Positions 11,500-47,168 of a DNA stretch of 64,000 nucleotides are shown piece after piece. The stretch spans positions 1,182,696 to 1,246,695 of the forward strand of contig JASNYQ010000001.1 of NCBI GenBank assembly GCA_048500095.1, given 5' to 3'. This DNA is from Thermoanaerobaculia bacterium (GTDB lineage: Bacteria > Acidobacteriota > Thermoanaerobaculia > Multivoradales > JAGPDF01). Within the stretch, counting starts at the first letter, position 1. Each line of letters starts with the position of its first letter. Both the position numbers and the translations under genes were made by a program. Below the pieces are notes generated by a model, which saw nothing but the letters and a program-made list of their open reading frames with translations, had not been told where the DNA came from and did not search any database.

Positions 11500-14400
11500 A
11501 TGTCCCCATCCAGGACGGCAGCGCTCTGCCGCCACGCCCTCGCCCTGTTCCTCGCTCTCGCCCCGGCGGCGGCGCTCGCACAGGGTGGCGCCTACACCGT
11601 CACCTCGCTCGCCGACAGCGGCCCCGGCACGCTGCGCGAGGCGCTCGACCTCGCCAACGCCGACGGCGGGCCGTCGACGATCGGCTTCGACGCCGGCCTC
11701 GCCGGCGGGACGATCCACCTCGCGACACCGCTTCCGGATCTCTGGGAGAACGGGACCGCGATCGACGGCGACCTCGGCGGCGACTGCCAGCCCGACATCC
11801 GCATCGACGGCGAGGCCCTCGCGAACGGCGGGATGCTCTACGTGCGCTCCGCGGGGAATCTGGTCCGGGGGCTGGCCTTCACTCGCTTTCCCCCCTGCGG
11901 GCTGAGCGGGAGCCTCTGGATCCAGGGCACGGCGAGCTCGGGCAACGTCCTCGAGTGCAACTGGATCGGCCTCGACCTGGACGGCAGCGCTCTGCCACGC
12001 CACTGCTACGGCGTGAAGCTCGTGGAGGGCGCCCACGACAACCAGATCGGCCCCGGCAACCGGATCACGGCCGGCGCAGCTGACGGGGTCTACGTCGAGG
12101 ACGGCAACAACGGAGGCTACCCCGAGTTCGACGGGCTCACGCCCGATCTCGTCGTGGTCGTGGACCCGATCGACCTCACCGACGAGGGCTGCTCGTTCCT
12201 GCGTCAGCGCGGCGGCGCCGTCTTCTACGACTCGGGAGGCCACCCGTTCACCGAGCACATCGGGCTGCGCCTCACCGGGAGGATCACGGTGGCCCAGGAG
12301 GGCGACTACACCTTCTCGCTGCCGAACCTGGACGACCACGGCCGCCTCTTCGTGCTGGACGAGACCCTGATCGACTGGCCCGGGCCCGGCGCCCCGCCAC
12401 CCGCGGTCAAGCACCTCGCGGCGGGGAGCCACGCGCTGCGTCTCGACTACCAGGAGTGGGGCGGCGCCGCCACGCTGCGCCTCGCGGTCACCGGCCCGCA
12501 GCCGGCGGCGCTCACGACCACCGGCAACACCGGCGGCTGCGGCTCGGGTCTCGCCGGCCTCTGCGGCCAGTTCTACCAGCTCCGCATGCCGAGCGAGCGG
12601 AACCGGATCACCGCCAACGCAATCTGGAGCAACGGCGGCAAAGGGATCGGCCTGAGCGGGAGTTGCTCGCCTCCCGTCAACGACCCGGACGACCTCGACC
12701 TCGGCCCGAACACCGTGCTCAACACCCCCGTCCTCACCGGCGTCTCCTGGGCCCAGATCCCCGGCGTGCCCGACGCGTTCAACGTCTCGGGCACGGCCCC
12801 TCCGGACTGCGTCGTCGAGGTCTTCGTCGGCGAGGGGATGCCCGACAGCCACGGCGAGGGGAAGGTCTACCTCGGCGACGGCCCCGCCGACGGCAACGGC
12901 GACTTCGCCTTCCCGGTCGAGATCCCGCTCGGCCTCACCGTGGCCCGCCTCACCGCCACCGCCACCGACGCGCTCGGCAACACCTCCGAGCTCGCGCTCA
13001 ACTTCGAATGGGAGAACGGCCACGACGAGGTGACGGTCGAGAGCGGCGCGAGCGGGCTGCCCGACGCGGTGGTCGAGATCCCGATCCACGTTCGCGACCT
13101 CCCGCACTCGCCGCTCGGTGTCGACCGGCCGGCCGGCGAGCGGATCCAGGGCTTCGCGATCAAGGTCGCCTGGGATCCGGCCGGCGCCGTCGTTTACTCC
13201 GACTTCGCCCGCGCCGGGATCACCGGCGCCCTCACCCCCTCCTACGCGACGGTCGTCCGCTCGGGCAACACCGCGAGCTACGTCCTGCACTTCGACGAGG
13301 TCACCGACCCCGTGCCCTTCACTCTCGACGCCGCCGCTCCGGGCGACCGGGTCGCGACGCTGCTCCTCACCCTCGCCCCGAACGCACCAGCGGGGCCGGT
13401 GACGCTCACCCTCGACCCCGTCACCGCGCTCAGCAACGAGGGCGGCACGCTCGAGGAGACCGTCGGGCTCGGCACCCTCGCCCTCGTCTCCGGGAGCTTC
13501 ACGGTCGAGTCGAACGCGGTGCGCGACCTCTTGGCGATGCCGCTCTCGGCCTCCGAGATCCGCCTCTCGTGGAACGACCCGAACGCGGGCGAGACCGGCT
13601 TCCGCGTCGAGCGCTCGCCGGACGGTGCCTCGTGGGTCCCGGTCGGCACCGCCGGGCCGGACGATCTCGAGCTCGTGGACCCGGGCCTCGCCCCGGCGAC
13701 CCTCTACTACTACCGCCTCGTGACCCTCCTCCCCTCCGGCGACGGCCACGCCTCCCACGCCGTCGCCGCCACCACCCACGCCGCGGTGGCCGCGCACGTC
13801 TGCGCGCTCCCTCTCTCCGGGCCGCGCAGCACCAGCGGACAGACTGCGATCGCGCGCGGCCCCGGCGAGTGGGCGGTCGTGTGGGCCGATCAGGTCGACG
13901 GTCGCCAGGCGGACCTCTTCTTCCAACGCCTCGCAGACGGCGACCTCGCGCCCGTGGGCCCGCGCGTCCAGGTGACAGCCACCGACGCGGCGAGCTCGGT
14001 CCCGGCCCTCTACTGGAACGGCACCCACTACGGCCTCTTCTGGCGCGAGGGAATCGGCGGCGAGCCCGGTCCGGAGGCCGCTCTGAGTCGCCACTTCTTC
14101 GCCCTCCTGAACCCGGACGGGACGAAGGCGCGCGGCGACGTGCCGCTCCCGACCCAACTTGGCTGGACGGCGTTCAACTTCGAGCACACCCTCGGCTGGG
14201 ACGGCACGCACTGGGGGCTCTTCCTCGGCGCCTGGACCGCCTTCCCGTACCAGAGGCTCTTCTACTACCGCCTCGACGCGGACGGCGACCTCGTCACCGG
14301 CCCCGTCGAGCTGCTCGCGCCGCCCGCCTCCTGGATCTCCGACCAGGCGGTCGCCTACGCCCCGGGCCCCGGCGTGTGGGGACTCGCCTGGAACCAGAAC

Positions 14401-17159: not shown

Positions 17160-20100
17160 ATGTCCCCCTCCCGCCGCTTCGCCCTCGCCCTGCTCCTCGT
17201 CCTCGCGCCCACGCTGGCGCTCGCGCAGGGGGGCAGCCTCACCGTGACCACGCTCGACGACCACGACGACGGCCTGTGCGACGCCGACTGCACCCTGCGC
17301 GAGGCGATCCACGCCGCCAACGGCGACGGCGGGTTGACGACGATCACCTTTGCCCCGGGGATGGCCGGAGGCACGATCCTCCTCGCCTCGCCGCTCCCGC
17401 AGCTCGTCGAGGCCGCGACTACGATCGACGGCGACCTCGGCGGCGACTGTATGCCCGACATCGGCATCGACGGATCGGCGATCACCGCCGGCGTGCTGCT
17501 CGACGTTTCGCTCGCCGGCGGGGTGGTGCGCGGACTCGCCTTCTACCGCATGCCGGGTTGCGAAGCCACCAACTTCAGCAGCCTGGTCCACGTCGGGGGC
17601 TCGACGGCGATCGGCAACCTCCTCGAGTGCAACAGCTTCGGCCTCGGCCCGGGCGGAGGCGAGCACCCCGGTCACTGCCTCGGCATCCGGGTGGATGGGG
17701 GCGCCCAGGACAACCACTTCGAGCGCAACCGCTTCACCGGCGCCGAGGCGTGGGCGATCTACCTCGAGGACGCCGGGTTACCGGCCTACCCGGAGTTCGA
17801 CGGCCTCACCCCGGACCTCGTCACCGAGATCGCCACGCTCGATCTCACCGACGACTGCCAGTTCTTCAAGGTGCGGGACGGCGCCACCTTCTACGACGCC
17901 GGCGGCCACCCGTTCAACGAGAACTTCGGCCTGCGGCTCACAGGGCAGATCCAGATCGCGGAGGAGGGCGACTACACCTTCACTTGGCCCTGGCTCGACG
18001 ACCTCGGCCGCCTCTTCGTGAAGGACGCGACGCTCGTCGACTGGGGAGGCGGCGGCACGCCGCCGCCCGCCGTCAAGCACCTCGAGGCCGGTTCGCACCC
18101 GATCCGCCTCGACTTCTTCGAGGGGGGCGGGGCGGCGGGGGTCGCGCTCACGGTTTCGGGCCCGCAGCCCGTCGCCTACTCGACCGACGGCAACCTCGGC
18201 GGCTGCGCCGCCGGCCACGCCGGCCTCTGCGGCGAGCTCTTCCAGCTGCGCGTCCCGAGCGAACGGAACACGATCACCCGGAACCAGTTCTGGAACAACG
18301 GCCGCGGCATCGTCACCAACTGCTGCTGCGGTCCCGCCGTCAACGACCCGGGCGACCTCGACCTCGGGCCCAACACTCTCCTCAACACCCCGGTCATCGA
18401 CTCGGTCACCGGCGGCGGCCCGCCGGGCAGCTACGTCGCGAGCGGCACCGCGCCGCCGAATTCCGTCGTCGAGCTCTTCGCGGCCTGGATGGACCCGACG
18501 TACACCCATGGCCAGGGGCAGGAGTTCCTCGGCTGGACCACCGCCGACGCCGGCGGTTCCTTCAGCGTACCGATCGGCATCTCGCTCTGGACGAACTTCA
18601 TGGTCGCCACCGCCACCGATCCCGACGGGAACACCTCGGAGTTCTCCGCGCCGTTCCTCCTCACCGACAACCGGGACGCGGTGACGGTTGCCGACTGGGG
18701 GACCGAGGTGCCCGGTGCGGAGATCGAGATCCCGGTCTACGTCCGCGACCAGAAGCTGACCCTGCTCGGCCGCGACCGCGCCGCCGGAGAGCGGATCCAG
18801 GGCTTCGCCTTCAAGGTCGTCTGGGAGCCGGCGAGCGCCGTGACCCTCGCCCGCTTCGAGCCGGCCGGCATCACCGCCGCCCTCACCCCGATCGTGGCCC
18901 CGATCCAGACCCAGAACGGGAACACCGCCGGCTGGGTCGTGGCCTACAACGAGGCGACGAACGAGATCCCCTTCGGCCTCGACACGCCGCCGCCCGGCAA
19001 CCAGGTCGCGAAGCTCGTCCTCACCCTCGCGCCGAACGCACCGACCGGCCGGGTGACCCTCACCCTCGACCCGGTCACCGCCCTCCACAACCAGGCGGGC
19101 ACGATCGAGGAGACGTTGCCCAGCGGCACTCTCATCCTGACGGCAGGGAGCATCGACGTGCTCTCGCACGCCGCACAGGGAGTGCTCGCCTTCCCGTACT
19201 TCTCCGGGATCATGGTCACCTGGAGCGATCCGCACAGCAACGAGATCGGCTTCCGCCTCGAGCGCTCGTTCGACGGCACCAACTGGGAGACCGCCGCGCT
19301 CCTCGGTCCCGACGACACGGGCTTCCAGGACCTCGACCGGCCGCCGGCGACGCTCCACTACTACCGCGTCGTCACCCTCGTGGACGGCGGCGACGGACAG
19401 GTCTCGAACCGGGCAGCGGCGACCACCCATGCCGCCGTCGCGACGCCGATCTGCGGCGCCCAGCAGTCGGCGCTGTTCCGCCACGCGCGCTACGCCTCGA
19501 GCGCCTGGAGCGGCAGCGAGTGGGCCGTCGCCTACCACGAAGCGGGGACCGCTCCGCTCGGCGAGATCTTCTTCCAGCGCCTCGCGGCCGGGGACGGTCA
19601 ACCCCTCGGCCCACCCGTGCGCGTGACGGCCAGCGACTCGGGCTCCTCGCTTCCGACCCTGCGCTGGAACGGCACGCACTACGGACTGATCTGGAACGAG
19701 AGCATGCGCGGAGAGCCCGGAACACCCGGGCTCGGCGCCTCGCGCCAAATGTTCGCCCTGCTCGCCCCCGATGGCGGGAAGGTCCGGGGCGACGTGCCCC
19801 TGCCCACGCCGTTCGGGGGATGGATCAACAACAACGCGAAGTGGGCGTTCGACTGGGACGGCTCCCACTGGGGGCTTTTCGGGACCGACTGGACGGCCAC
19901 CCCACCATTCAGCAGAGTCATCTACCTGAAGCTGGACGAGGACGGGGACACGGTGCTCGGGCCCGTGCCGATCACGGCGACCCTCGATCGCTGGGAGAAC
20001 GATGTCGCTGCCGCCTTCAGTCCCACCGAGAGCCTCTACGGCGTCGCCTGGAAACGCTACGAGAACACGCCAGGTGGCCCTGTCGAGGTCTGGTTCCAGC

Positions 20101-22769
20101 GCGTCGAGGAGGCTGACGGCACCCCGGTGGGCGGCGCCGTCCTCCTCGGTTCCTGGCTCGGCAGCCCGGACGGGCTCGACATCGCCTGGGACGCAGCGAC
20201 CGGCGCCTGGGCGGTGGTCTGGAGTCAGTGGCCGAGCGATGGGAGCGAGGCCCCCCTCATGCTGCGCAAGGTGGCGGCCGACGGCTCGCCGATCGGACCT
20301 GGCCCCGAGCGCCTGTCCGACGATCCCGACCCGGAGGACCCGCGTTGGGACGAGCTTCCGGTCGTCACCGTCACCTCGGCGGGAGAAGTACGGGCGTTCG
20401 CCTGGAGCGGCGACAACGCGACCGGCGCCTACGAGGTCGGTCTGCTGCGCGCGGATGCGAGCGGGGCTCGCCTCGGGAGCCGCATCCTGGTGACGCCGTT
20501 CGACGGCCTCTGGCAGGCCTATCCTCAGGTCGCGAGCGACGGCGCCCGGCAGCTCGTCGCCTTCAACGACGCCACCGCGGGAAGCCTCGAGGTGGGCGCC
20601 GTGCTCGTGGACGAAAGCGCTCTTCCGGGCGCTCTCGTGCCGCTGACCTCCGGCCACATCCCCGGGAACACTTACGGCACCTTTTCCGGCGGGCCGGCCA
20701 AAGTCGCACCGCTCGGCGCCGGCTTCGTGGCGGTCTGGATGGAACGCACGTCCGGTACGCCCACCCTCGCCGCTCGCGCCTACGACGGGACCGGGAGCAT
20801 CACCGCGGAGGCCCTGCCACTCACCGCCACACCTCTCGGGCACTCCGCCTTCGACCTCGTGGCGGCGGGAGGGACCTTCGCTCTGGTCTTCCGAGACGCC
20901 GGCGGGGGAATCCGCTTCAGTCGCTTCGACGAGTTCCTCAACCGCCTCACCCCCGAGGAAGGGGTGGTCGTGACCGGCGCCAACGGGCCGACCGCAATCG
21001 GCTTCGACGGCGAACGCTACGGGCTCGTTTTCCGCCGTTCGGGTGGCTGGAGCTACGCCTCGGTCTGGCCTGACGGCTCACTCGCCGAGCAGCGCCTGCC
21101 GCTGGCGCTCACGCCACCCGGAAACTCCCAGCCGCACCTCTTCTGGCTCGGAAGCAGCTGGGCGCTGGTCTGGCAATCATGGGAAGGCTCGACGATCTTC
21201 CTCGGCCGTTTCTCGGCATCCGGCGACGTCCTCTTGCCCGCCACGCCGCTCACGCCACCGGCGGCCTACTCCTCCCGCAATCAGTACGCCGCAGCGTTCG
21301 GGGGAGACCGGATCGCCGTGGCCTGGGTCGAGAACCTCGGACCCAACCCGCCGGGGCAGGACATCCACTACACGATCGTCGGACTCGACGGGGGAATTCT
21401 CAGCCCGGCCGCGGTGGCGGCGAGCTCCGTCTTCAGCGAGTCGGGGCCCCGGCTCCTGTGGCGCGGGGGGACGTTCCACCTCCTCTACGCCGGGGAGATC
21501 TCCGGAATCCACGAGATCGAGATCGATCCGGCCGGGGCGCTGATCGGAACGCCGCGCGCCTGGGCGAACCGGGGGACGCCCGCCGCAGTGGCCACGAACG
21601 GAGCGACGACGGCGTTGGCCTGGACCCAGCCCGAGGTATTCCTCATGACCGACTTCTGCCTCGCGGACAGCACCCGGCCGCCGTGCCCGAACGTCGCGAT
21701 CTCGTCTGTGGATCACAGGATCCGTCTCAACTGGTCCGGCGGCGGGGACCCCGAGTCGGGACACTGGCGCACGATGGTCTTCCGCGGGGAGGCGGCTACG
21801 CCCGGCAGCGAACGGGCCGTGGCCGAGCTCTTCCTCGACACCACCTCGCTCGACGATGGCGGCTTCACCCTGGGCGCCATCCACACCTACCAGGTACTGG
21901 CCATGAACGGCGCCTTCCGGCTCTCCGAGGGCTGCCCGCTCCTCTCCTTCTCGACCGTGCGCGGCGACGCGAACGGGGACGGCGTGGTCGACGGCACGGA
22001 CATCTTCTACCTCGTCAACCACCTGCTCGCCGGCGGCCCGCCGCCGCTGGGGGACGCCGACGCCAACGGTTCGGGCGGCGTCACCACTGGCGACATCTTC
22101 TACCTCATCAACTGGCTCTACGCCGGCGGCCCGGCCCCCGAGTGGAGCGGCGAGACGCTGCGGCTCGATTCCCTGCCCGGCCGGCTCGCGGCGGCTCCCC
22201 ACGCCGCCCTTTCGACCCGAGAGGCCGAGGAAGCCGTCCCGGCGAGCGACCGTCCGCGCTCCACCGTCGCGCTCGGCAAGGCCATGGCCCGCGCCGGCGC
22301 GACCATCGCGATCCCCGTCACGCTCGTCGACGCCGCCGGCACTCCGCTCGGCCGCGACCGCGACGCCGAGGCTCCGATCCAGGCCCTCGCGCTCAGCGTC
22401 AACGTGCTCCCCGCCGGCGCGGTCACCGCGATCGAAGTGCGGCGAGCGGGGGTCCTCGCCAGGCCCGAGCCGCTCTTCGAGTCGCGGCCCGTCCACGCCG
22501 CCGGTGCCGCCCTCGTCGTCTCCTTCGACGAGGCGTTCGCCCCGCTCCCGATCTCGTCGGCCGGCGTTTCCGCGAGCCGCACCCCTCCGGCCACGGCGAT
22601 CGCCGAGGTCGTCGTCACCCTCGCCCGCGAGCTCGCGCCCGGCACCGCCGTCGAGCTCCGCCTCGACCCCGGCACCACGCTCCTCTCCAACCAGGCCGGC
22701 ACCGTCAGCGAGACCGCCGCCAACGGCTGGCTCGCGCTGCGGGACGGACGGATCGAGGTGACGCGGTGA
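17160..22769 (+). CDS. paralogue of 11500..17091 with the same domain order; N-terminal motif CTLREAI (CSLREA-domain-like)
   Basis: AAGGAGG RBS. Signal peptide. Domain order is collinear with the upstream gene. The C-terminal ~150 aa are nearly identical to it. Confidence 0.8.
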   Translation: MSPSRRFALALLLVLAPTLALAQGGSLTVTTLDDHDDGLCDADCTLREAIHAANGDGGLTTITFAPGMAGGTILLASPLPQLVEAATTIDGDLGGDCMPDIGIDGSAITAGVLLDVSLAGGVVRGLAFYRMPGCEATNFSSLVHVGGSTAIGNLLECNSFGLGPGGGEHPGHCLGIRVDGGAQDNHFERNRFTGAEAWAIYLEDAGLPAYPEFDGLTPDLVTEIATLDLTDDCQFFKVRDGATFYDAGGHPFNENFGLRLTGQIQIAEEGDYTFTWPWLDDLGRLFVKDATLVDWGGGGTPPPAVKHLEAGSHPIRLDFFEGGGAAGVALTVSGPQPVAYSTDGNLGGCAAGHAGLCGELFQLRVPSERNTITRNQFWNNGRGIVTNCCCGPAVNDPGDLDLGPNTLLNTPVIDSVTGGGPPGSYVASGTAPPNSVVELFAAWMDPTYTHGQGQEFLGWTTADAGGSFSVPIGISLWTNFMVATATDPDGNTSEFSAPFLLTDNRDAVTVADWGTEVPGAEIEIPVYVRDQKLTLLGRDRAAGERIQGFAFKVVWEPASAVTLARFEPAGITAALTPIVAPIQTQNGNTAGWVVAYNEATNEIPFGLDTPPPGNQVAKLVLTLAPNAPTGRVTLTLDPVTALHNQAGTIEETLPSGTLILTAGSIDVLSHAAQGVLAFPYFSGIMVTWSDPHSNEIGFRLERSFDGTNWETAALLGPDDTGFQDLDRPPATLHYYRVVTLVDGGDGQVSNRAAATTHAAVATPICGAQQSALFRHARYASSAWSGSEWAVAYHEAGTAPLGEIFFQRLAAGDGQPLGPPVRVTASDSGSSLPTLRWNGTHYGLIWNESMRGEPGTPGLGASRQMFALLAPDGGKVRGDVPLPTPFGGWINNNAKWAFDWDGSHWGLFGTDWTATPPFSRVIYLKLDEDGDTVLGPVPITATLDRWENDVAAAFSPTESLYGVAWKRYENTPGGPVEVWFQRVEEADGTPVGGAVLLGSWLGSPDGLDIAWDAATGAWAVVWSQWPSDGSEAPLMLRKVAADGSPIGPGPERLSDDPDPEDPRWDELPVVTVTSAGEVRAFAWSGDNATGAYEVGLLRADASGARLGSRILVTPFDGLWQAYPQVASDGARQLVAFNDATAGSLEVGAVLVDESALPGALVPLTSGHIPGNTYGTFSGGPAKVAPLGAGFVAVWMERTSGTPTLAARAYDGTGSITAEALPLTATPLGHSAFDLVAAGGTFALVFRDAGGGIRFSRFDEFLNRLTPEEGVVVTGANGPTAIGFDGERYGLVFRRSGGWSYASVWPDGSLAEQRLPLALTPPGNSQPHLFWLGSSWALVWQSWEGSTIFLGRFSASGDVLLPATPLTPPAAYSSRNQYAAAFGGDRIAVAWVENLGPNPPGQDIHYTIVGLDGGILSPAAVAASSVFSESGPRLLWRGGTFHLLYAGEISGIHEIEIDPAGALIGTPRAWANRGTPAAVATNGATTALAWTQPEVFLMTDFCLADSTRPPCPNVAISSVDHRIRLNWSGGGDPESGHWRTMVFRGEAATPGSERAVAELFLDTTSLDDGGFTLGAIHTYQVLAMNGAFRLSEGCPLLSFSTVRGDANGDGVVDGTDIFYLVNHLLAGGPPPLGDADANGSGGVTTGDIFYLINWLYAGGPAPEWSGETLRLDSLPGRLAAAPHAALSTREAEEAVPASDRPRSTVALGKAMARAGATIAIPVTLVDAAGTPLGRDRDAEAPIQALALSVNVLPAGAVTAIEVRRAGVLARPEPLFESRPVHAAGAALVVSFDEAFAPLPISSAGVSASRTPPATAIAEVVVTLARELAPGTAVELRLDPGTTLLSNQAGTVSETAANGWLALRDGRIEVTR

Positions 22770-23389
22770 CGCGCGCCGCCCGCGCGGCGCTCGTCCTCGC
22801 CGCCCTCGCCCTCCTCGCGGGGGCGGCGCGCGGCCAGGACGAGCTGCGGGTGGGGACGGGCAAGGGGCTCCCCGGCGGCTTCGCCGAGGCCGCGCTCACC
22901 GTGCGCGACCTCGCCGGCACGCTGCTCGACGAGGGGGACGGGCCGGGGCTCGAGATCCAGGGCTTCGCCCTGCGCATCGAGTACCCGGCCGCCTCCGTCA
23001 CCAGCTGCGACTTCCACCAGGCGGGGGTGACGCGCGGCAAGCCGGCGCTCATGAGCTCGGTCGGGCGCGGCGCCGGCTACTGCTACGTCCTCTTCGCCTT
23101 CGAGGAGGGGGCGGCGCCGCTCCTCTTCACCCTCGGCCGCGCCGCCCCCGGCGACACGGTGGGGAACTTCCGCCTCGGTCTCGCCGCCGACCTGCCGCTC
23201 GGGTCGAGCTTCGCGCTCACCCCGGTGGCCTCCACCGCGATCCTCGACAACGGCCAGGGGACGCTCTCCGAGACGCCCCAGAACGGGCACCTCGCGCTCG
23301 CGAGCGGGGTCGTCCTGATCACCCCCGAGATCTTCCGCGACGGCTTCGAATCGGGCGGCCTCGCCGTCTGGTCCGAGCGGCGGGGCTGA
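22766..23389 (+). CDS. stand-alone secreted cohesin-like domain protein
   Basis: GTG overlaps the upstream stop (GTGA). Signal peptide. IQGFALRIEYPAASV and YVLFAFEEGAAPLLFTL...APGDTVGNFRL parallel the cohesin-like modules of the giant proteins. Confidence 0.55.
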   Translation: MTRAARAALVLAALALLAGAARGQDELRVGTGKGLPGGFAEAALTVRDLAGTLLDEGDGPGLEIQGFALRIEYPAASVTSCDFHQAGVTRGKPALMSSVGRGAGYCYVLFAFEEGAAPLLFTLGRAAPGDTVGNFRLGLAADLPLGSSFALTPVASTAILDNGQGTLSETPQNGHLALASGVVLITPEIFRDGFESGGLAVWSERRG

Positions 23390-25550: not shown

Positions 25551-25624
25551 TGGCTGGGAGGCAGGGACTCGAACCCCGATTCTGCGGTCCAGAGCCGCAT
25601 GTCCTACCATTGAACGACCTCCCA
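25551..25624 (-). tRNA. tRNA-Gln (anticodon CUG), CCA encoded
   Basis: Folded manually. 7-bp acceptor stem U1:A72, G73 discriminator, anticodon loop cuCUGga, T-loop GGTTCGAGTCC. 74 nt. Confidence 0.85.
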
Positions 25625-25736
25625 GCAGGACGCCCAAACCCTACCGAAAGCGGCGCTTCGGGTCAACCTCGCGGGCGCTCCCGACCGCTCGGGGAGCCTC
25701 ACCCGGCGCCGCCCGGGCGCCGGATCAGAGGCGCGA

Positions 25737-26111
25737 TCAGCCGCGGGGGAGCGGGCGCGCGGCGCGCACCTCGGCGAGCAGCTGCTCGCCCTCCTCGAGG
25801 CGCGGGCCGTGCACGAGGAGCCGCGCCTCCCAGGGCTCCGGCCGCCCGCGGCGCAGCTCCCCCTTCTCGTCCTCGAGCGGGAGGGCGGTGCCCGCGTGCA
25901 CCACGTAGGGGATCTCCTCCTCCTCGAGCCGGCCGACGATCTCGCCGAGCTCCTCGGGGTCGTGGGTCGCGAGCAGCTCCTCGAGCTCGGCGACCGGACG
26001 GGCGGCCTGGACCTCCTCGAGGGAGGAGACGAGCGCCACGTTGCAGTCGGCGCAGACGGTGAAGCCGGGGCGGTACTCGCCGCCGCATTCGGGGCAGAAC
26101 ATGCCGCGCAT
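25737..26111 (-). CDS. small zinc-ribbon protein (DUF2007-like)
   Basis: MRGMFCPECGG...CADCN at the end of a long spurious antisense ORF. Acidic C-terminus. Confidence 0.45.
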   Translation of the reverse strand: MRGMFCPECGGEYRPGFTVCADCNVALVSSLEEVQAARPVAELEELLATHDPEELGEIVGRLEEEEIPYVVHAGTALPLEDEKGELRRGRPEPWEARLLVHGPRLEEGEQLLAEVRAARPLPRG

Positions 26112-26231
26112 TCTATGCGGGCCGGGCTCCGGATCGCGCCGGCCGGGCGGCCCATCTCCCGCCGCGGGGGCCGTTCGGATCCTCCCGGCCCGCGCTATCG
26201 TCCGCGGTGGCAACCCGGAGGCTGGGGGCAG

Positions 26232-28154
26232 ATGCGGCTCGCGACTCGCTTCGGCAGTGGATGGGGAAAGTGGCTCCGGCGGCTCGCCGTGGGCCTCCTG
26301 GCGGCGGAGGTCGCCTACGTCGCGGCGTTCGCGCTCGCGGCCGAGAGCGGCCTGCTCGCCCGCTGGCTCGACCGCCGGCCGGAGAAGATCGGCTTCTCCT
26401 TCGCCTCGGCCCGCTCCTGGGTGCCGTTCCACGCCTCGGTGGCGGGCCTCGAGGTGCGCGGGCAGACGCCGCGCCTGCGCTGGCGCCTGACCGTGGACGA
26501 GGCGAGCGGCTGGCTCTCCCCGCTGCCCCTCCTCGGCCGCCGGGTGCGGCTGGTCGGAGTCGAGGCGCACGGGGTCACCGCGCAGATCCTGCGGGCCGGT
26601 CCGCCCGAGGCCGCGGGCGCAGAGGCCGAGCCCGGCCCGCCGCAGGCCGACCCGGAGCGGGCCCGCTGGCTGCCGCCGATCCCGCCCCTCGCCCCGCCCC
26701 CCTCGCCGCCGCGGGCGGTGCGGCCGAAGTGGTCGATCGAGGTCCCGCGGGCCGAGGTCGAGGGCGTCCGCGAGGTCTGGATCGACGAGCTGCGCCTCAC
26801 GGGCGAGATCGCGGCCGTGGGCGGCTTCGCGCAGCGCGCGGGGCGCGAGGCGGAGGTGTTCCCGTCGCGGGCGACGGTGCGCGAGGCGCTCCTCGCCGTC
26901 GGCGACGCGCCGGGCGCCGACGCCCTCGCCGGCACGGCCGAGATCGAGGTCGCCCCCTGGCCGTTCCAGGAGGAGCGCGGCTGGGCGGTGCTGCCGCGGG
27001 TGACGGGCCGCGCCGAGCTCGACGGGCGCCTCTCGGTGGCGGGCTTGCTCGCCCACTTCGGTCTCGCGCGCTGGGTGGAGGTCGAGCCGGTCCCCACGCC
27101 GGCCACCATCCGCCTCGCGGTCCGCTCCGGTGCGATCGCCCCCGGGAGCCGGATCGAGCTCGCCCCCTCGCCGCTGCGCATGCGGCTCCTCGACTTCGAG
27201 GCCACCGGCCGCGCCAGCGCGCGGCTCGAGACCGCGGAGGACGAGGCGGGTCCGCGCGGCGACCTCCGCGTCGAGTTCGAGGCGTTCGAGCTCTTCCCGC
27301 GCGGAGCCCAGGCGCCCGACCTCACCGGCACCGGCCTCGCCCTCACGGCCACCACGCGCGACCTCCTGCTCCAGCCGCGCCCGCGCTCGGGGTCGGCCCG
27401 CGTCGACCTCGGCACGGCGCGCCTCGCCGACCTCGCGCGCCTCGACCGCCTGCTCCCCGCGAGCCTGCCGCTCACCCTCGTGGGCGGCAGCGGCAGCGTC
27501 GCCGGCGGCCTCGACGTCGACCTCGGGAGCCTCGCCGCCCGCGGGCTGGTGGCGACGCGGATCGAGGACGCCGCCGTGCGCTACCGCGACCTCGACCTCG
27601 CCGGCGACGTCGCGATCGACCTCGCGCTCGCCAGCCCCGATCTGCTCACCCGGACCTTCGACCTCGCCGGCACCCGCCTCGAGCTCCGCGACTTCGCGAG
27701 CCCGCAGGCCGCCGCCGCCGGGCCCGCCTTCGCCCCGGGCTGGTGGGCGCGCATCGAGCTGCCGGCGGGGGAGGTGCGGCTCCCCCCCGAACCCTCGGCG
27801 CGGACCCGGTTCACCGTCCGCCTGCGCGACTCGGTGCCGCTGGTCGGCCTCTTCGCCACCCGGCGCGACCTGCCCGACTGGGTCGAGAACGTCCTCTCGG
27901 TCGAGGACGTCGAGGTCGCCGGGCACTTCGCCTGGTCGCCGCGCGGTGTGCGGCTCGACGACCTCGAGAGCCGCCTGCGCGAGGCCTCGCTCTCCGCCCA
28001 CCTCCGCTTCGGCCGCGCCCGGCGCTCGGGCGCGCTCCTCGTCGAATGGAAGAAGCTCGCCGCCGCCGTCGCCTTCCGCCAGGAGGAGCGCGAGATCCAG
28101 CTCCTCGGCGCCCGCGCCTGGTACGCCGAGCGCGCGGCGCGGGCGCGGCGATGA
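26232..28154 (+). CDS. membrane-anchored hypothetical protein (640 aa)
   Basis: ATG at 26232 in frame. One N-terminal TM helix, then a long Ala/Leu/Arg-rich region. No recognisable motif. Confidence 0.45.
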   Translation: MRLATRFGSGWGKWLRRLAVGLLAAEVAYVAAFALAAESGLLARWLDRRPEKIGFSFASARSWVPFHASVAGLEVRGQTPRLRWRLTVDEASGWLSPLPLLGRRVRLVGVEAHGVTAQILRAGPPEAAGAEAEPGPPQADPERARWLPPIPPLAPPPSPPRAVRPKWSIEVPRAEVEGVREVWIDELRLTGEIAAVGGFAQRAGREAEVFPSRATVREALLAVGDAPGADALAGTAEIEVAPWPFQEERGWAVLPRVTGRAELDGRLSVAGLLAHFGLARWVEVEPVPTPATIRLAVRSGAIAPGSRIELAPSPLRMRLLDFEATGRASARLETAEDEAGPRGDLRVEFEAFELFPRGAQAPDLTGTGLALTATTRDLLLQPRPRSGSARVDLGTARLADLARLDRLLPASLPLTLVGGSGSVAGGLDVDLGSLAARGLVATRIEDAAVRYRDLDLAGDVAIDLALASPDLLTRTFDLAGTRLELRDFASPQAAAAGPAFAPGWWARIELPAGEVRLPPEPSARTRFTVRLRDSVPLVGLFATRRDLPDWVENVLSVEDVEVAGHFAWSPRGVRLDDLESRLREASLSAHLRFGRARRSGALLVEWKKLAAAVAFRQEEREIQLLGARAWYAERAARARR

Positions 28155-36449: not shown

Positions 36450-36802
36450 CAGTAGAAAGGCATCGGATCGCTGCAGGCGGCCTCTACGGCGCTGGTCAGC
36501 TGGCCTGCAGTGGGTGGATCTCCAGGACCGGTGCTTGGGCTGGTGTCCTCCAATTGACCCGCCACGTGGAGCCCCTCATGAATTAGGAGCGTTGCAGCGA
36601 AGGACGTCGCGAAACCCGCGAACCGGTCGCAGAGGAAGATCACACGATCATGGTTGCAGCAGGTGGTCCAGGCCCCCGTGGTGGGATTCTCACACGGCTT
36701 GACGTTGCTGCCGTGGGTAACACCCTCGCCGCGCCGGAAGACAACATACCCATTCAAGATCTCAACGCCGCTCATGCCAAGCGGCGAGTTGTCGAACAGC
36801 AT
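36449..36802 (-). CDS. small HExxH-motif protein (putative metallopeptidase-like, 117 aa)
   Basis: Sits at the low-coordinate end of a longer spurious ORF. Lower local GC. LLIHEGLHVAG motif. Several Cys. Confidence 0.35.
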   Translation of the reverse strand: MLFDNSPLGMSGVEILNGYVVFRRGEGVTHGSNVKPCENPTTGAWTTCCNHDRVIFLCDRFAGFATSFAATLLIHEGLHVAGQLEDTSPSTGPGDPPTAGQLTSAVEAACSDPMPFY

Positions 36803-36820
36803 CGAGCTGCTCCGAGGTGC

Positions 36821-36900
36821 CATGCGACTTGCGACGGCATCGCGCTGCTCTTCAGGTGTTCTTCGGGTGCTCTTCAGGTGCCATGCGATCTGCGCCAGAT
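36821..36900. repeat. two REP-like copies (AGGTGCCATGCGACTTGCG, AGGTGCCATGCGATCTGCG) with GTGYTCTTCRG tandem between
   Basis: Read directly. Forward orientation, immediately upstream of the HUH transposase-like gene. Confidence 0.75.
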
Positions 36901-36928
36901 TCAAGGGGGCGATGGCGTCTTCGAAGGC

Positions 36929-37858
36929 ATGCCACGCCGAATCCGCTTCGTGCCCCCCGGAGGCGCGCTCGTCGAGGTGACCTGCCGGACTCTCCAAGCC
37001 CGCCTCCTCCTGCGCCCCTCGCCCCTCCTTCGCGACATCACCCTCGGCGTTCTCGGCCGCGCCCAGCGGCAGACCGGGGTTGCGATCCACGCCTTCGTCT
37101 TCCTCTCCACCCACCACCACCTCCTCGTCTCCGTCTCGGACGCCGCCCAGCTTGCTAGGTTCGTCGGCTACCTCAACTCCAACCTCGCCCGCGAGCTCGG
37201 CCGGATGCACGCCTGTCGGGAGAAGTTCTGGGGCCGCCGCTATCAGGCCATCCTGGTCAGCGACGAGGAGGCCTCCCAGGTCGAGCGCCTCCTCTACCTC
37301 GCCCGCCACGGCTGCAAGGAGGGCTTGGTCTCCGACCCTCTGGACTGGCCCGGAGCCACCAGCTGGCAGGCGATGCTGGACGGAAGGCCGCTCGAGGGCA
37401 CCTGGTTCGATCGCACGGCGGAGAGCTTGGCGACGCGGAAGGGGGTCGAGTTCGGGGCCCGGGACTTCGCCAGCGCGGAGACCGTGGTGCTCGCACCGCT
37501 CCCGGCCTGGGCGCACCTCGAGCCCGAAGTCCAGCGGGAGCGGCTGCGGGAGCTCCTCGATCTCGCCCGGGCCGAGGCCGCGGCGATGCGCGAGGAGACC
37601 GGGCGCGAGCCCCTGGGCCGCGAAGCCGTGACACGGCAGGACCCTCATGGATCGCCGCTGCGGAGGAAGAAAGGTCCGGCGCCGCTGGTGCATGCGGCGA
37701 GCCGCGAGGTGCGAAGAGCTTACCGGGAGGCGTACCGTCTCTTCACGGCCGCCTACCACCGCGCGGCCGAGGCCCTGCGGGCCGGGATCGCCACCGTCGT
37801 CTTTCCCGAGGGTTGCTTCCCTCCACCTGGGCCGTTCCAGCGGCCGGCAACGGCCTGA
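36929..37858 (+). CDS. IS200/RayT-like HUH (Y1) transposase homologue with ~170-aa C-terminal extension
   Basis: IHAFVFLSTHHHLLV (HUH). FWGRRYQAILV...LLYLARHG resembles the catalytic-Tyr region of TnpA_REP/COG1943. The first conserved YHV is degenerate (VEV). Confidence 0.5.
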   Translation: MPRRIRFVPPGGALVEVTCRTLQARLLLRPSPLLRDITLGVLGRAQRQTGVAIHAFVFLSTHHHLLVSVSDAAQLARFVGYLNSNLARELGRMHACREKFWGRRYQAILVSDEEASQVERLLYLARHGCKEGLVSDPLDWPGATSWQAMLDGRPLEGTWFDRTAESLATRKGVEFGARDFASAETVVLAPLPAWAHLEPEVQRERLRELLDLARAEAAAMREETGREPLGREAVTRQDPHGSPLRRKKGPAPLVHAASREVRRAYREAYRLFTAAYHRAAEALRAGIATVVFPEGCFPPPGPFQRPATA

Positions 37859-38050
37859 GAGCAGCTTCTACCGAACCGACTTCCTCCCATCCACCAGGGG
37901 CGACTTGCGCCCGAACGGTAACGCGCACAAGCAACGACACTCGGTAGACCGATCTGACGCGGCACGCTTTGGCCCCAATCTGGCCCTGTCTCCCGCATGT
38001 CCGGCCGCGGCGCAGGCTTCGGGGTCAACGCGCGACATGCGCAACCGAGC

Positions 38051-38170
38051 CAGGCCTGGAAATCGCATGGCACCCTTTCGGCACCCTCTCGGCACCCTCT
38101 CGGCGCCGGCTATCCGGACGTGTCGGAAGTCGCCTGGCACCCTCTCGGCGCACCCTGCTCGCGCCCGACT
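38051..38170. repeat. REP-like copies in reverse orientation (AATCGCATGGCACCC, AAGTCGCCTGGCACCC) with GGCACCCTYTC x3 tandem
   Basis: Read directly. Inverted relative to the 36821..36900 copies, so the pair flanks the transposase-like gene. Confidence 0.75.
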
Positions 38171-38265
38171 CCCACAACCACGAGCCCCGGCTCGTCACGG
38201 GAAACCACCGTCCCTTGACAGGAACGCCTTCAATGAGTGGCACCCTCTCCAGCAGGCGAGGATTT

Positions 38266-38556
38266 CTATCGTCTTAAGGCATTTCCAAGGCGAGAAAGCA
38301 GCCACGCCACGAAGCCGAGCGCCGCGCCAACCACCGAGGCCGCCAGGCCGCTGTACAAGACAGCTGCCGGGATCCACATCCATCTTGGGCCAGGCGGCGC
38401 CTCACTCCAGCAGAACAAGAACCACAAAAAGAATCCAGCGATAAAGCCAAGCGCGGGCACGACCCTGGGCAAAGACACCGGTTGCCGACGAAGCACCAAC
38501 CAGGCCAGTAGACTCGGAAGTCCAAGGGCCATCACCAGCAGAGAGAAGTCTCGCAT
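38266..38556 (-). CDS. small 3-TM membrane protein, candidate RHS-toxin immunity protein
   Basis: ATG overlaps the RHS stop (TGATG). 96 aa, low GC, hydrophobic. Confidence 0.5.
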   Translation of the reverse strand: MRDFSLLVMALGLPSLLAWLVLRRQPVSLPRVVPALGFIAGFFLWFLFCWSEAPPGPRWMWIPAAVLYSGLAASVVGAALGFVAWLLSRLGNALRR

Positions 38557-40518
38557 CAGAAGTCCACCCCTCTACGCAACCGTCTTATGAGTTGCCTCAT
38601 GAAGAACCGAGTCAGGCGCTCCATCTGCTTATCGCGCTCGGAGCAGGGATCATAAGTGTCCGTCCAGGTCGCTTGGGCTTCATAGTCGAAACCCCAGTGG
38701 CTGAAAAACTCTAGACGAAGGGCGTGGCCGCCCAAGAACCACTTCCGACCAGCGTGCGAGAACGTGTCCTGCAGCTCATGGAGGTGCTCACCAAATGCTC
38801 GAAGATCTGCCGCTTCTATCGCATCATAGAGGTCGCGTTCGACATCCACCCTTTCGCGGAAATGCCGCCAGCCCTGAAATGGGTTGAAGGGGTGCTTCCA
38901 GCCGTGGTCCATTCCTTCATTGTAGGAAGCAATCATGTCGGCCTGGAATGGCGAGAAGTCTTCCTGAAGCGCCCAAGTGTGCGTCTTGTGAAGATGAAGC
39001 TCGGTTCTATAGAGGCCTGATGGGTCCTTGGAATTGACTGGATCGTTGGCGGAATACTCAAACAGACCAGCTGATCCGCCTTCGAACCCAATCGGATCCT
39101 TCGCCGTCCACCTCCCCACCTCCGGGTCGTAGTCCCGCGCCCCGAACCGCACGAGCCCGGTCTGGGGGTCGTAGAGCCCTCCAGCGAACCCGAACGGCTG
39201 CCAGCCCGGATTCGAGTCGTAGGTGATCCGGCCCCAGGCGTCGTAGTCCAGCCGCTGCACGACCGCCCCGCTGGTGGCGTCCACCACCAGCCGCACGCTG
39301 CCCAGGTGGTCGGTGAGCATCCGGTAGGTCGTGCCGCCCGCTACCAGGTAGTCCGGTACGTGCCCCTGCGTCCCGTACACGAACGTCTTCGTGACCGCCC
39401 CCGTCCCGTCCGTCTCCGCCGCCGGCGCGAGGCCCCCGGCGTAGAGCCAGCCCTGCGTCAGCACCCCGTCGACCCGCTTGCCGATCCGCCGGCCCGAGGC
39501 GTCCACCAGGTACTCGATCGCGATCCCGTCTGGCAACTCCACCCCGAGCAGCGACCCGCGGATGTCGTAGGCGTACGAGGTGGTCTCCGGCCCCGCGCTC
39601 TCGGTCAGCCGCTCGCCGTTTGCCGTATAGGTGAAGGCCTTGGCGCCCGCCGTGAGCTGCCGGTCCTGCGCGTCGTAGGTCGCCACCCCCGAGCCCCAGA
39701 AGTCGCTCCAGCTCGTGCGGTTCCCGTTGCCGTCGTAGCCGTAGCTCGCGACCGGCACCCCGTCTCTCCGCACCTCCGTCAGCCACCCCCGCTCCGGGTG
39801 GTAGCCATACTCCCACACCGCGGTCACCCCGCCGATCGTCTCCGTCCGCCGCGTGATCCGGCCCCCCGCATCCCGGTCCAGGTCGTAGGCGTACGCCACC
39901 GACCCGCCGATCCGCGCCGTGAAGACGTCCAGCTCCCCGAACCCCGTCCGCGTCCGCTCCTCCGAGGTCACCCCCAGCGCCGTCGTCGCGAGCCACCCGC
40001 TCGCCGCCTCCCGGCCGAGGTCGAGCTCCCCGGCCCGCACCAGCAGGCCGTCGGGGTCGTACTCGTACGCCACAGGAGCGCCCCCCGCCACCGTCCGCCC
40101 GGCCAGCCGCAGGTCCGCGTCGTAGCTGAAGCCGATCGCGCCCGCGACCGGGCCCGACGTGGCGATCGAGGTGAGAAGCGGCCCCTCGTACCCGAAGGTG
40201 CTCTGGAAGCCGCCCGGCGCCGCGACCGTGCTCACCCGGCCGCTCGCCGCGTCGTAGGAGAGGTCCACCACCCCGGTCGGCAGCGTCACGAAGTCGAGAC
40301 GCCCGCTCGGCTCGTAGCTCGGGAGCAGCTCCTGACCGTCCGGCCGCGTCACCGCCGTCAGCTGCCCGTCGGCGTTGTAGGCATACCTCGTGTGCCGCGG
40401 CGCGAAGCCCGCCTCCGGAGGGGTGTACGTGTCCACCAGGTCGGCGGGTGTGTAGCCGAAGTCGTGCGGTGGACGCGTCGGTGGGGTGATCGAGGCGGTT
40501 CGAAAATCGCCCAGCACC
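38556..40518 (-). CDS. RHS/YD-repeat protein, 5'-truncated, with RHS core (DPxGL) and unassigned C-terminal toxin domain
   Basis: YD repeats (YAYDxxGrL) begin near aa 165 of the ORF. Core motif ARDYDPEVGRWTAKDPIGFEGGSAGLFEYSANDPVNSKDPSGL. The last ~150 aa are low GC and His-rich. The ORF's first ~160 aa are Arg/Ser junk, and GTG at 40518 is the likely start. Confidence 0.7.
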
Positions 40519-40569
40519 CTATCGGCGCCCTCTCGGTTCGGCGCAGTTAGGTCCTCTCTCGGGCGCCCT

Positions 40570-41265
40570 TCACGGGGGCCCCGGCTGCACTTGCAGGACC
40601 ATCTCGCGCAACTCGGCATCGGTCCGCGCGGTGCGTTCTTCCACGATGAGCTCAGGCTCGAGAAGCAGAACGGGGTCGTGGTAGCGGAACTCGCGGGGTG
40701 GTTCTCCCGGTTGATACTCCGGCAGCATGAAGTACGCCTTGTAGTCCATAGTCCGGCCTTCCAGAGTGACGCGCGAATCAAACGCGATAATCGCCTCCGG
40801 AGTCTGGACTTCTCGCCCGGCCTCTCGATGGTACTGGAAGATAGCCTCGACGGTGAGCTTGGCCGCTTCTTCGCCCTCCGCGTCGGGGGCAGTGTTCGTG
40901 ATCCAACGCGCCGCGAACGAGATGCCCAGCGGCTGCCCGTTGAGCGAGCGCGTCGAAACGGTGATCCCGATCGAATGGCTCGGAGCAACGGTGAGGACGT
41001 CGCTCAGGTTGGCCTTTCCGAACTCGCTCTTCGGAATGACCCGGACGTTCGAGATGTCGATCGTCAGAGGCGTTCCGGTCGCGGTCACCTGGCGCTCGTG
41101 GCGGGCGTAGACCTCCCGCACGAGAGCCTCAGCGCTCAGCGCCTCGCCTGAACCTGCTACCGGGCTCGGCACCTCGGCGAGCGAGGCGCCGACCAAAGAG
41201 AGCAGGGCGACAACCCCATGTGTGAGACCAACCCATAATCTCTGTCTCTCTCCACGCTTCGACAC
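40570..41265 (-). CDS. secreted hypothetical protein (232 aa)
   Basis: GTG start gives MSKRGERQRLWVGLTHGVVALLSLVGASLA signal peptide. Lower GC. Confidence 0.45.
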   Translation of the reverse strand: MSKRGERQRLWVGLTHGVVALLSLVGASLAEVPSPVAGSGEALSAEALVREVYARHERQVTATGTPLTIDISNVRVIPKSEFGKANLSDVLTVAPSHSIGITVSTRSLNGQPLGISFAARWITNTAPDAEGEEAAKLTVEAIFQYHREAGREVQTPEAIIAFDSRVTLEGRTMDYKAYFMLPEYQPGEPPREFRYHDPVLLLEPELIVEERTARTDAELREMVLQVQPGPP

Positions 41266-41289
41266 AACCCCTGACGACCACCGCTGCGA

Positions 41290-41460
41290 CTGAAGATCGC
41301 CTGGCACCCTTTCAGGCAGCACCTCCCCCTGTCGCCCCTCATGCCGGGGGCAAGGCGCACCCCTGAGGGTCTGTACCTGACCTTCACGACCGAATCCGGC
41401 CTGCAAATCGCCTGGCACCTTCTTAGCACCTTCTTACACCTTCTTACACCTTCTTAGCTC
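41290..41460. repeat. two REP-like copies (reverse orientation) and CACCTTCTTA x4 tandem
   Basis: GATCGCCTGGCACCC at ~41296 and AATCGCCTGGCACC at ~41408. Perfect 10-bp tandem at 41417..41456. Confidence 0.8.
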
Positions 41461-41467
41461 TCACAAA

Positions 41468-45497: not shown

Positions 45498-47168
<1,671 letters not shown>

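Follow-up and report, generated by a model that had tools for sequence, protein, structure and literature searches.

Three co-directional genes in a 64,000-nucleotide stretch of DNA (the window, to which all positions refer) probably form, on balance, a self-contained and non-cellulosomal cohesin–dockerin assembly system built on a new cohesin clade, in which the modules would bind one another. Within 11500-23389, genes A and B encode giant paralogues with 55% identity over their full length and a common module order, which runs from a signal peptide through a putative beta-helix head containing PA14, an Ig module, cohesin-like module 1 (Coh1), FN3, a predicted beta-propeller region of about 720 aa, an FN3-like module, a dockerin, and cohesin-like module 2 (Coh2). 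Gene C follows with a stand-alone cohesin-like product (Table 1). The locus reveals a large cohesin clade missed by standard profiles, encoded together with the dockerin that is its likely partner in a compact operon that is conserved.

The host is a Thermoanaerobaculia MAG (Acidobacteriota), high-GC, diderm, and uncultured, from soil or sediment. This agrees with a sequence-only reading of the same DNA, which had called the organism high-GC, Gram-negative-like, and no clostridial cellulosome producer. Locus DNA is 74% GC, at which a promoter and terminator scan was uninformative, and gene A has a GC3 of 0.94. The start of gene A has a GGAGG Shine–Dalgarno sequence upstream, and its product begins with a signal-peptide-like N terminus, MSPSRTAALCRHALALFLALAPAAALA. 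The ORF of gene B opens at 17088, which had been taken as its start; the likely start is instead the ATG at 17160, because a Shine–Dalgarno sequence (GAAGGAGG) precedes it, in the same context as the start of gene A, and because the NCBI orthologue, named 'CSLREA domain-containing protein', is 1869 aa long. Genes A and B are therefore 68 nt apart and do not overlap. An ATGA overlap at this junction was considered and rejected, the Shine–Dalgarno-preceded ATG being the better start. The GTG of gene C overlaps the TGA of gene B as GTGA, and the earlier description of adjacent secreted giants of the same module order, followed by this GTGA start, stands in all but the start of gene B. Next to the locus lie genes for an aldo-keto reductase, a cNMP-binding protein, an MFS-FHA protein, a methyltransferase, and a GGDEF protein; this neighbourhood varies among related loci and offers no clue to function.

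Table 1. Genes and modules of the locus (positions in the window; residues of the encoded protein).
Feature	Positions	Strand	Residues	Remarks
Gene A	11500-17091	+	1863 aa	Giant secreted modular protein; ORF and translation
PA14 of A	12253-12504	+	252-335	Inserted in CSLREA-like/beta-helix head (aa ~28-425)
Cohesin-like module 1 of A	13015-13515	+	506-672	Family profile A1, E 1e-63
FN3-like module of A	13516-13764	+	673-755	Pfam fn3 20.8 bits, cutoff 25
W-rich tract of A	13765-16014	+	756-1505	~13 four-stranded blades predicted
Second FN3-like beta-sandwich of A	16015-16299	+	1506-1600	Seven strands; AF2 model residues 757-844
Dockerin of A	16300-16494	+	1601-1665	EF-hand-like loop pair, DANGNGVLDLAD and DANGSGSVTVAD; IFYLIN helix after each loop
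Cohesin-like module 2 of A	16585-17088	+	1696-1863	C-terminal; A1 profile, E 3e-60
Gene B	17160-22769	+	1869 aa	Paralogue of A, from ATG 17160
Cohesin-like module 1 of B	18672-19175	+		Aligned in A1; A1 profile, E 2e-63
Propeller tract and second FN3-like module of B	19416-21956	+		A2 profile match over full length, E 0
Dockerin of B	21963-22115	+		DANGDGVVDGTD ... DANGSGGVTTGD; A3 profile, E 6e-38
Cohesin-like module 2 of B	22233-22766	+		A1 profile, E 1e-59
Gene C	22766-23389	+	207 aa	Small secreted stand-alone cohesin-like protein
Parts of protein C				Signal peptide aa 1-23; cohesin fold aa ~24-186; conserved tail F-x-DGFESG-x4-WS aa 187-207

The three types of cohesin-like module are, by their sequences, mutually homologous, with C sharing 39% identity with residues 506-672 of A (E 1e-23) and 31% with residues 1690-1863 (E 3e-14). 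Standard profiles do not recognise them: Pfam Cohesin (PF00963) gave no match at E≤1 in A, B, or C and none in 10 wider family members; an NCBIfam scan of the three proteins matched no cohesin; and homologues of C carry no precomputed Pfam domain. Membership by sequence profile was consequently rejected, and the cohesin claim therefore rests on fold. A phmmer search of the PDB with C returned noise only (WDR55 at E 1.1). The family profile placed cohesins first among PDB sequences (6kg8, 6kgc, 2vn5, and 1g1k), at E values of only 0.06-0.6 and with alignments collinear at strand 1 and strands 8-9. Modelling of C yields the nine-stranded flattened beta-sandwich (jelly-roll) of ~140-160 residues that superposes on solved cohesins, CohG among them. 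The predicted fold is unambiguously that of a cohesin, and the modules called cohesin-like in the sequence-only reading are thus borne out structurally, although the Pfam profile passes them over.

Identity to any solved cohesin is 12-19%, and strands 2 and 3 are joined in this family by a loop of 18 conserved residues, RDL..T.L....D.....IQGF. The cohesin clade comprises at least 425 representative sequences; in the wider family, 11 of 31 long members contain a dockerin pair, almost always with a helix of the FYLIN type. Public records name the proteins 'hypothetical', 'CSLREA domain-containing', or even 'TMEM16 family'. We read these modules as a new, unannotated, and very divergent cohesin clade. 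Protein C had been described as only a cohesin-like module; it does consist of a signal peptide and such a module, but a conserved C-terminal tail of ~20 aa is also present. It bears no sortase signal, SLH domain, or lipobox. The giants themselves also carry no anchor and there is no known outer-membrane route, both of which speak against assembly.

The dockerin modules of A and B appear to be type I, judged by HMM score, the tandem layout of their loops, and profile comparison with solved dockerins. Pfam Dockerin_1 (PF00404) scores 29.2 bits in A and 28.5 in B against a gathering threshold of 22.9, over profile positions 2-56 of 57, while the GC-type dockerin model (NCBIfam NF041540) scores 18.4 and 15.6 bits, below its cutoff of 29. 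The loops of A run D1604-A-N-G-N-G-V-L-D-L-A-D1615 and D1635-A-N-G-S-G-S-V-T-V-A-D1646, with Ca-ligand positions 1, 3, 5, 9, and 12 intact in both, and the pattern of loops plus IFYLIN is conserved in 17 orthologues. The dockerin profile A3 matches solved dockerins across both repeats (2y3n_B at E 2.4e-5, 1daq_A, 2mte_A, 2ccl_B, 3ul4_B, 6kgc_B, and 1ohz_B), including some whose structures are those of cohesin complexes. Both giants have the pair of dockerin loops with IFYLIN helices noticed earlier.

Where else such dockerins occur bears on a different explanation, in which the five cohesins of the locus act as a scaffoldin-like hub: they would be sockets for dockerin proteins encoded elsewhere (enzymes or binding proteins) in a cellulosome-like complex of a diderm, and the giants would attach by their own dockerins to another cohesin-bearing anchor. 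Other proteins in Thermoanaerobaculia/Thermoanaerobaculaceae MAGs do contain closely related dockerins, many of them short dockerin-only ORFs; two proteins of other architecture, P0059 and P0096, join an N-terminal cohesin-like module to a C-terminal dockerin; and some members of the wider family possess SLH or IPTL-CTERM surface anchors. Searching for homologues with the dockerin profile yielded little besides very short proteins and fragments, and did not recover the giants themselves. Against such a hub, a genome scan with narrow dockerin patterns located this type of dockerin in hardly any places other than giant-protein loci, and neither the locus nor the retrieved dockerin-bearing relatives contain a glycoside hydrolase, CBM, protease, or other enzyme domain. 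GH, PL, CE, and CBM families were unmatched throughout A, B, C, and the neighbouring genes, so these genes lack the dockerin-bearing enzymes and CBM-bearing scaffoldin by which a cellulosome is defined. We regard the hub as improbable.

Conservation of the operon is one part of the indirect comparative evidence for coupling of cohesin and dockerin. A search for related loci with the dockerin alignment A3 recovered the same plan across phyla, in 15 or more MAG loci of Thermoanaerobaculia/Acidobacteriota and Lysobacterales: one to three tandem giants (Coh1-propeller-Doc-Coh2), then the small cohesin gene with a 4-nt overlap. At loci L006, L007, and L012, the dockerin is the last module of the giant and an ORF of its own encodes Coh2; several database proteins (P0171, P0070, and P0175-P0179) likewise end right after the dockerin, with Coh2 separate or absent. 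Fusion and fission of Coh2 beside the dockerin is a pattern typical of interacting partners.

Dockerin-like EF-hand pairs are widespread without cohesins. The modules of the giants might not interact at all, with the cohesin folds serving as passive beta-sandwich spacers or ligand binders and the dockerin pair, stabilised by Ca2+, having a purely structural part in a large adhesin or S-layer-like protein. Three observations make this quite unlikely, and the least probable of the explanations considered: the predicted fold matches cohesins specifically, with other beta-sandwiches clearly further off; the dockerin subtype is repeatedly found together with the cohesin clade, across several architectures and phyla; and Coh2 is fused or split beside the dockerin.

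The same region raises a further possibility, namely that the dockerin binds the Coh2 that follows it in the same chain. The resulting clasp would be a compact, stabilised C-terminal knob on a monomeric giant adhesin that forms neither chains nor lattices, and some other function would fall to Coh1 and the small cohesin. The two modules are adjacent and jointly kept alike in the paralogues, the linker between them (~30-37 aa) is long enough for docking in cis, and, with one dockerin per chain and several cohesins, a 1:1 cis pair is the simplest stoichiometry. The giants that end after the dockerin tell against it, since with Coh2 separate or absent, either trans binding must be possible or Coh2 is dispensable; moreover, an intramolecular clasp leaves the always-present small cohesin gene unexplained. 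We consider it unlikely, if marginally less so than the hub.

Likeness among paralogues, followed in three genomes, is unevenly distributed along the chain. Within a genome, paralogues are 74-92% identical in Coh2 and 71-86% in the dockerin, against 43-51% in Coh1 and the propeller for most pairs, and Coh2 is only 47-49% identical between genomes. Coh2 of A and B is 92% identical in amino acids and equally 92% in nucleotides; because the two values coincide, selection for compatibility is not required, and the likeness of dockerin and Coh2 within a genome could be plain gene conversion of the 3′ end. Partial Mantel/mirror-tree comparison of 13 giants correlated dockerin distances with those of Coh1, Coh2, and Coh3 alike (partial r 0.46-0.57 in all), thereby singling out no partner among the three cohesin types in a test confounded by shared history. 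Taken together, operon conservation, Coh2 fusion and fission, and paralogue likeness lend indirect support to a functional coupling of cohesin and dockerin.

The remainder of each giant is a likely glycan- or surface-binding payload. PA14 (PF07691) reaches 25.5 bits in A (gathering threshold 24) and a sub-threshold 19.8 bits in B, where the region is 63% identical to that of A; the A region also weakly matches the PA14 protein 6qdi in the PDB. CSLREA_Nterm (TIGR04214) behaves conversely, scoring 38 bits in B (cutoff 25) with no match in A, because A lacks the Cys-containing motif and has GPGTLREAL in its place. The profile searches proposed with the sequence-only reading thus bear out each of these two domains in one giant only. 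The parallel beta-helix that it had also put forward is weakly matched here (E 0.29) and supported mainly through head homologues, which bear Beta_helix/NosD (PF13229/PF05048) and PA14 domains. Its FN3 module falls below the Pfam cutoff here, as does Big_6, and PF00041 is on record for several orthologues of the giants; the second FN3-like module has weak PDB matches of the titin/FN3 type. What had been called a long W-rich repeat tract shows no internal repeats by BLAST, and its profile finds no meaningful match among PDB sequences. The modelled blades of the tract in A are most simply interpreted as two tandem beta-propellers, a call that comes from the structure model only.

For the assembly system that we favour, the data establish which modules are present, that they are related to one another, and that the operon is conserved; we infer mutual binding of the modules, the partner cohesin, and the assembly role. 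Each giant would be exported by its Sec signal peptide. It combines a likely glycan- or surface-binding payload (the beta-helix head with inserted PA14 and the two predicted tandem propellers) with a single dockerin, which is type-I-like and predicted to depend on Ca2+, and with a pair of divergent cohesin modules; gene C adds a lone cohesin that is secreted and free. One giant may then plug its dockerin into a cohesin of another, A or B, to give oligomers or chains; alternatively, the dockerin may plug into the small product of gene C, which might serve as a cap, a chaperone, or an anchor via its conserved C-terminal tail. Such an assembly would be extracellular and multivalent, with an adhesive or lectin-like character, and would not be an enzyme complex.

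A bolder version of this proposal, which we put forward tentatively and hold to be doubtful, is that the unrecognised, Pfam-invisible cohesin clade and a 'FYLIN' dockerin subtype drive self-polymerisation of lectin-like giants into an extracellular fibre or lattice on uncultured diderms (Thermoanaerobaculia and Lysobacterales). The small cohesin would be the chain terminator or, through its new C-terminal motif, the cell anchor; the whole would be a 'matrixome' for adhesion and architecture, not for polysaccharide degradation, and would offer orthogonal binding pairs.

Cohesin–dockerin pairing is among the strongest and most engineerable of protein–protein interactions, and to our knowledge almost everything understood about it comes from Firmicute cellulosomes. 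Here, the hosts belong to diderm lineages that are uncultured although widespread in the environment, and the payload is non-enzymatic and probably lectin-like. Should the modules bind as predicted, the building of extracellular or surface architecture would join enzyme scaffolding among the roles of such pairs, a new annotation profile would recover hundreds of hidden cohesins, and synthetic biology would gain pairs that are probably orthogonal to existing ones.

Among known systems, clostridial type I pairs (C. thermocellum CipA Coh2-Xyn10B Doc, 1ohz; C. cellulolyticum, 2vn5; C. acetobutylicum CaCohA2-Doc0917, 6kgc) differ in several respects. The cohesins described here share only 12-19% identity with theirs, escape Pfam Cohesin, and have the extra 18-residue loop; IFYLIN takes the place of the S/T and K/R recognition residues in the dockerin helices; and, in contrast to clostridial cellulosomes, there are no enzymes or CBMs and the MAG comes from a diderm of the Acidobacteriota rather than from a Firmicute. 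The non-cellulosomal cohesin and dockerin proteins of Archaeoglobus fulgidus (2xdh) are archaeal and much smaller, with other accompanying domains, and standard profiles recognise that cohesin but not the present clade. As a secreted stand-alone cohesin, protein C structurally matches R. flavefaciens ScaG/CohG (4n2o), and the wider family members that pair a cohesin-like module with SLH or IPTL-CTERM resemble anchoring scaffoldins (ScaE, 2zf9; SLH-bearing); unlike these, C has the F-x-DGFESG-x4-WS tail in place of their attachment signals. The propeller tract was compared with PLL-family lectins (Photorhabdus PLL, 5c9o; Burkholderia BP39L, 6gxr) and with the 7-bladed propellers CylK (7ron) and YncE (3vgz). 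A parallel in principle is Amy4 of the Ruminococcus bromii amylosome, in which cohesin and dockerin in one protein recognise each other experimentally and multimers have been proposed (PMC4611034); the principle of a self-binding cohesin and dockerin protein is therefore not new. The sequence-only reading had followed this logic in suggesting that the giants could self-chain into a lattice. Socket and plug likewise share one polypeptide here, with binding predicted; whereas Amy4 is a GH13 amylase of a Gram-positive gut bacterium with one cohesin, the giants have two per chain, a free one beside them, and a non-enzymatic payload.

The operon at 11500–23389 comprises three genes, all in one orientation and all strongly GC-biased at third codon positions, in a window of about 74% G+C: two giant secreted paralogues, A and B, and a small cohesin-like protein, C. 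The start of B is placed at ATG 17160 because GAAGGAGG precedes it in a context matching A's start and because the NCBI orthologue has 1869 residues; the A-to-B gap is then 68 nt. Over their full length A and B show 55% identity and one module order, as the sequence-only reading had it, and the GTGA start/stop overlap that it described for C is present. The nearest database proteins come from Thermoanaerobaculia MAGs (Acidobacteriota), one being 97% identical to A, and MCL4837294.1 is the exact sequence of C. One NCBI record, MCZ7652023.1, labels the small protein "TMEM16 family protein"—almost certainly a mis-annotation—and another calls it hypothetical. Flanking genes are unrelated housekeeping and signalling genes. 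Further along the window, a lower-GC island (63%–68% versus ~74%) was probably acquired horizontally.

Coordinates of the operon, other window features, and features of related loci
Feature	Sequence	Position	Strand	Remarks
Gene A	window	11500-17091		1863 aa
Gene B	window	17160-22769		1869 aa per NCBI orthologue call; ORF opens 17088
Gene C	window	22766-23389		207 aa; GTG overlaps B's TGA
Tail of C	window	23324-23386		C aa 187-207
tRNA-Gln (CTG)	window	25551-25624	-	2.2 kb downstream of operon
846-aa high-GC ORF	window	25614-28154	+	adjoins tRNA-Gln; no Pfam match
Lower-GC island	window	36500-45500
IS200-like transposase ORF	window	36650-37858		in island
RHS/YD-shell toxin-like fragment	window	38556-40988	-	in island
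ABC transporter pair	window	41967-43744	-	in island
Three giants, part	L013	3156-16191		contig CAWDWZ010000004.1
Three giants, part	L019	1-9445		contig CAWDWZ010000004.1
Separate Coh2 ORF	L006	8222-9106
Separate Coh2 ORF	L007	8214-8792
Separate Coh2 ORF	L012	8306-8800
Tail	L002	10571-10633
Tail	L001	11327-11671	-

The proposed dockerin pair is upheld in both giants, with Pfam Dockerin_1 scoring 29.2 bits in A and 28.5 bits in B against a gathering score of 22.9. A has the loops DANGNGVLDLAD and DANGSGSVTVAD; their counterparts in B are DANGDGVVDGTD and DANGSGGVTTGD. An IFYLIN-type helix comes after every loop, a pattern kept in 17 orthologues. The dockerin profile (A3) best matches 2y3n_B in the PDB (E 2.4e-5), followed by 1daq, 2ccl_B, 3ul4_B, 6kgc_B, and 1ohz_B, which are dockerins solved in cohesin complexes. 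The other domains fared unevenly: PA14 (Pfam) exceeds threshold in A but not in B, CSLREA_Nterm (NCBIfam) is found in B but not in A, and Pfam fn3 and Big_6 are sub-threshold only. Short dockerin-only proteins also exist (P0283, 80 aa, 140-kb contig; P0288, 66 aa, 98-kb contig; P0365, 67 aa, 1.9-Mb contig); many of 50–125 aa are closely related to the FYLIN-type subtype, some on long Thermoanaerobaculaceae contigs, and these could be real mini-dockerins or pieces of frameshifted large genes.

Pfam Cohesin matches none of the cohesin-like modules of A, B, or C. C aligns with A506-672, the first module, Coh1 (39% identity, E 1e-23), and with A1690-1863, the C-terminal Coh2 (31%, E 3e-14), and by sequence comparison the three module types are mutually homologous. 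A profile (A1) of C, 11 homologues, and four modules of the giants ranks cohesins best among PDB sequences, in collinear alignment, with an E of only 0.06. The AlphaFold2 model of C from this alignment (mean pLDDT 86.4) has nine main strands, and its 50 best Foldseek matches are cohesins without exception, with E as low as 1.2e-8 and target-normalised TM reaching 0.81. C matches cohesins in its modelled fold but not by the Pfam profile, and its family is therefore described as a divergent cohesin clade rather than a member of PF00963. The structure model covers C only, and Coh1 and Coh2 are assigned as cohesin-like by homology.

In the long W-rich "repeat" tract between these modules BLAST finds no internal repeats, and the profile of the tract (A2) has no relative among PDB sequences. 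The AlphaFold2 model of A756-1600 from alignment A2 (pLDDT 82.9, pTM 0.82) is all-beta and ends in an FN3-like sandwich of seven strands. The ~53 strands ahead of this sandwich are most simply read as ~13 blades, which would make up two tandem propellers without an assignable family; lectin resemblance is a lead only.

A full-library profile search recovers 425 representative proteins with the cohesin-like module (E<=1e-3), mostly secreted, with a single N-terminal module followed by varied domains. Pfam Cohesin is absent from all 10 members sampled, among which Dockerin_1 (P0059, P0096), SLH (P0040), IPTL-CTERM (P0049), FG-GAP, and DUF11 occur; 11 of 31 long members carry the dockerin pair, nearly all with the FYLIN-type helix. 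A dockerin-pattern scan of GTDB species genomes yielded 27 loci, mostly from Thermoanaerobaculia/Acidobacteriota and Lysobacterales MAGs. When the ORFs in all six frames of every fetched locus are profiled with A1, A2, and A3, a conserved plan emerges of one (L002–L005, L018, L021), two (L010, window), or three (L013 with L019) tandem giants, ordered Coh1–propeller–dockerin–Coh2, then a small cohesin gene. In the loci with gene calls (L002–L004), this small gene shares 4 nt with the giant before it. In L006, L007, and L012 the dockerin is the last module of the giant, and a separate ORF, out of frame or beyond a stop, encodes Coh2; either a real split of the gene or a frameshift in the assembly could account for this. 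Longer giants (L015, L016; P0172, P0174, P0014, ~2950 aa) have an N-terminal extension of ~1000 residues that matches BNR/Sortilin-Vps10-type propellers, and P0170 (2836 aa) has an SLH domain; the family therefore swaps heads and in some cases acquires a cell-wall anchor.

C ends in a conserved tail, F-x-DGFESG-x4-WS-x3-P, modelled at low pLDDT and without a match in Pfam or NCBIfam. Among the ORFs examined, it occurs only after terminal cohesin-like modules (also in L001, L002, L005, L006, L010, L015, L019, and L020), on the small proteins and, in L015, on the final cohesin of the giant itself. The tail may serve as a signal for sorting, anchoring, or interaction.

Same-genome paralogues are 74%–92% identical in Coh2 and 71%–86% in the dockerin, versus 43%–51% in Coh1 and propeller in most pairs; across genomes, Coh2 is only 47%–49% identical. 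Such similarity would be expected if co-resident giants must stay mutually compatible or share a partner; gene conversion at the 3′ end would explain it just as simply, because Coh2 nucleotide identity equals amino acid identity (92%). The L013/L019 trio is mosaic, copy c resembling copy a in the propeller (71%) and copy b in Coh1 (70%) and dockerin (86%), which indicates recombination among paralogues. Mirror-tree correlations are alike for Coh1, Coh2, and C, singling out no dockerin partner. Assembly among the operon's products has three rivals: a scaffoldin-like hub serving other dockerin proteins, an intramolecular clasp between the dockerin and the Coh2 that follows it, and a complete absence of cohesin-dockerin binding.

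The analysis shows what the modules are, that the cohesin-like ones are homologous, that the operon is conserved, that Coh2 occurs fused or separate, and that paralogues are alike in a concerted way; it confirms the sequence-only observation and supports its interpretation in part, assembly of the verified modules being plausible. We infer that the modules bind, with which partner and in what stoichiometry, and what their biological role is: most likely, though by a modest margin, the operon products assemble together extracellularly through Ca2+-dependent contacts between dockerin and cohesin. Giants would be joined to one another at Coh1 or Coh2, and the small cohesin, as cap, chaperone, or anchor, would take up that same dockerin. 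Multivalent attachment to glycans or surfaces would come from the payload, made up of the PA14/beta-helix head and the propellers. The self-polymerised extracellular lattice once suggested is doubtful.

That cohesins and dockerins also occur outside cellulosomes is well known: A. fulgidus has such a pair (2xdh), and R. bromii has its amylosome. The A. fulgidus pair has been employed for display (PMC9705933); for Amy4, binding of a cohesin to its own dockerin was demonstrated in one protein, and multimerisation was proposed (PMC4611034). Literature on cohesin and dockerin with Acidobacteria yielded no such system. As a stand-alone cohesin, C has a precedent in R. flavefaciens CohG (4n2o), one of its structural matches. 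What is new is a cohesin clade missed by standard profiles (public names being hypothetical, CSLREA, or TMEM16), its pairing with a distinct dockerin subtype, and a non-enzymatic giant architecture in a conserved operon of uncultured diderm hosts.
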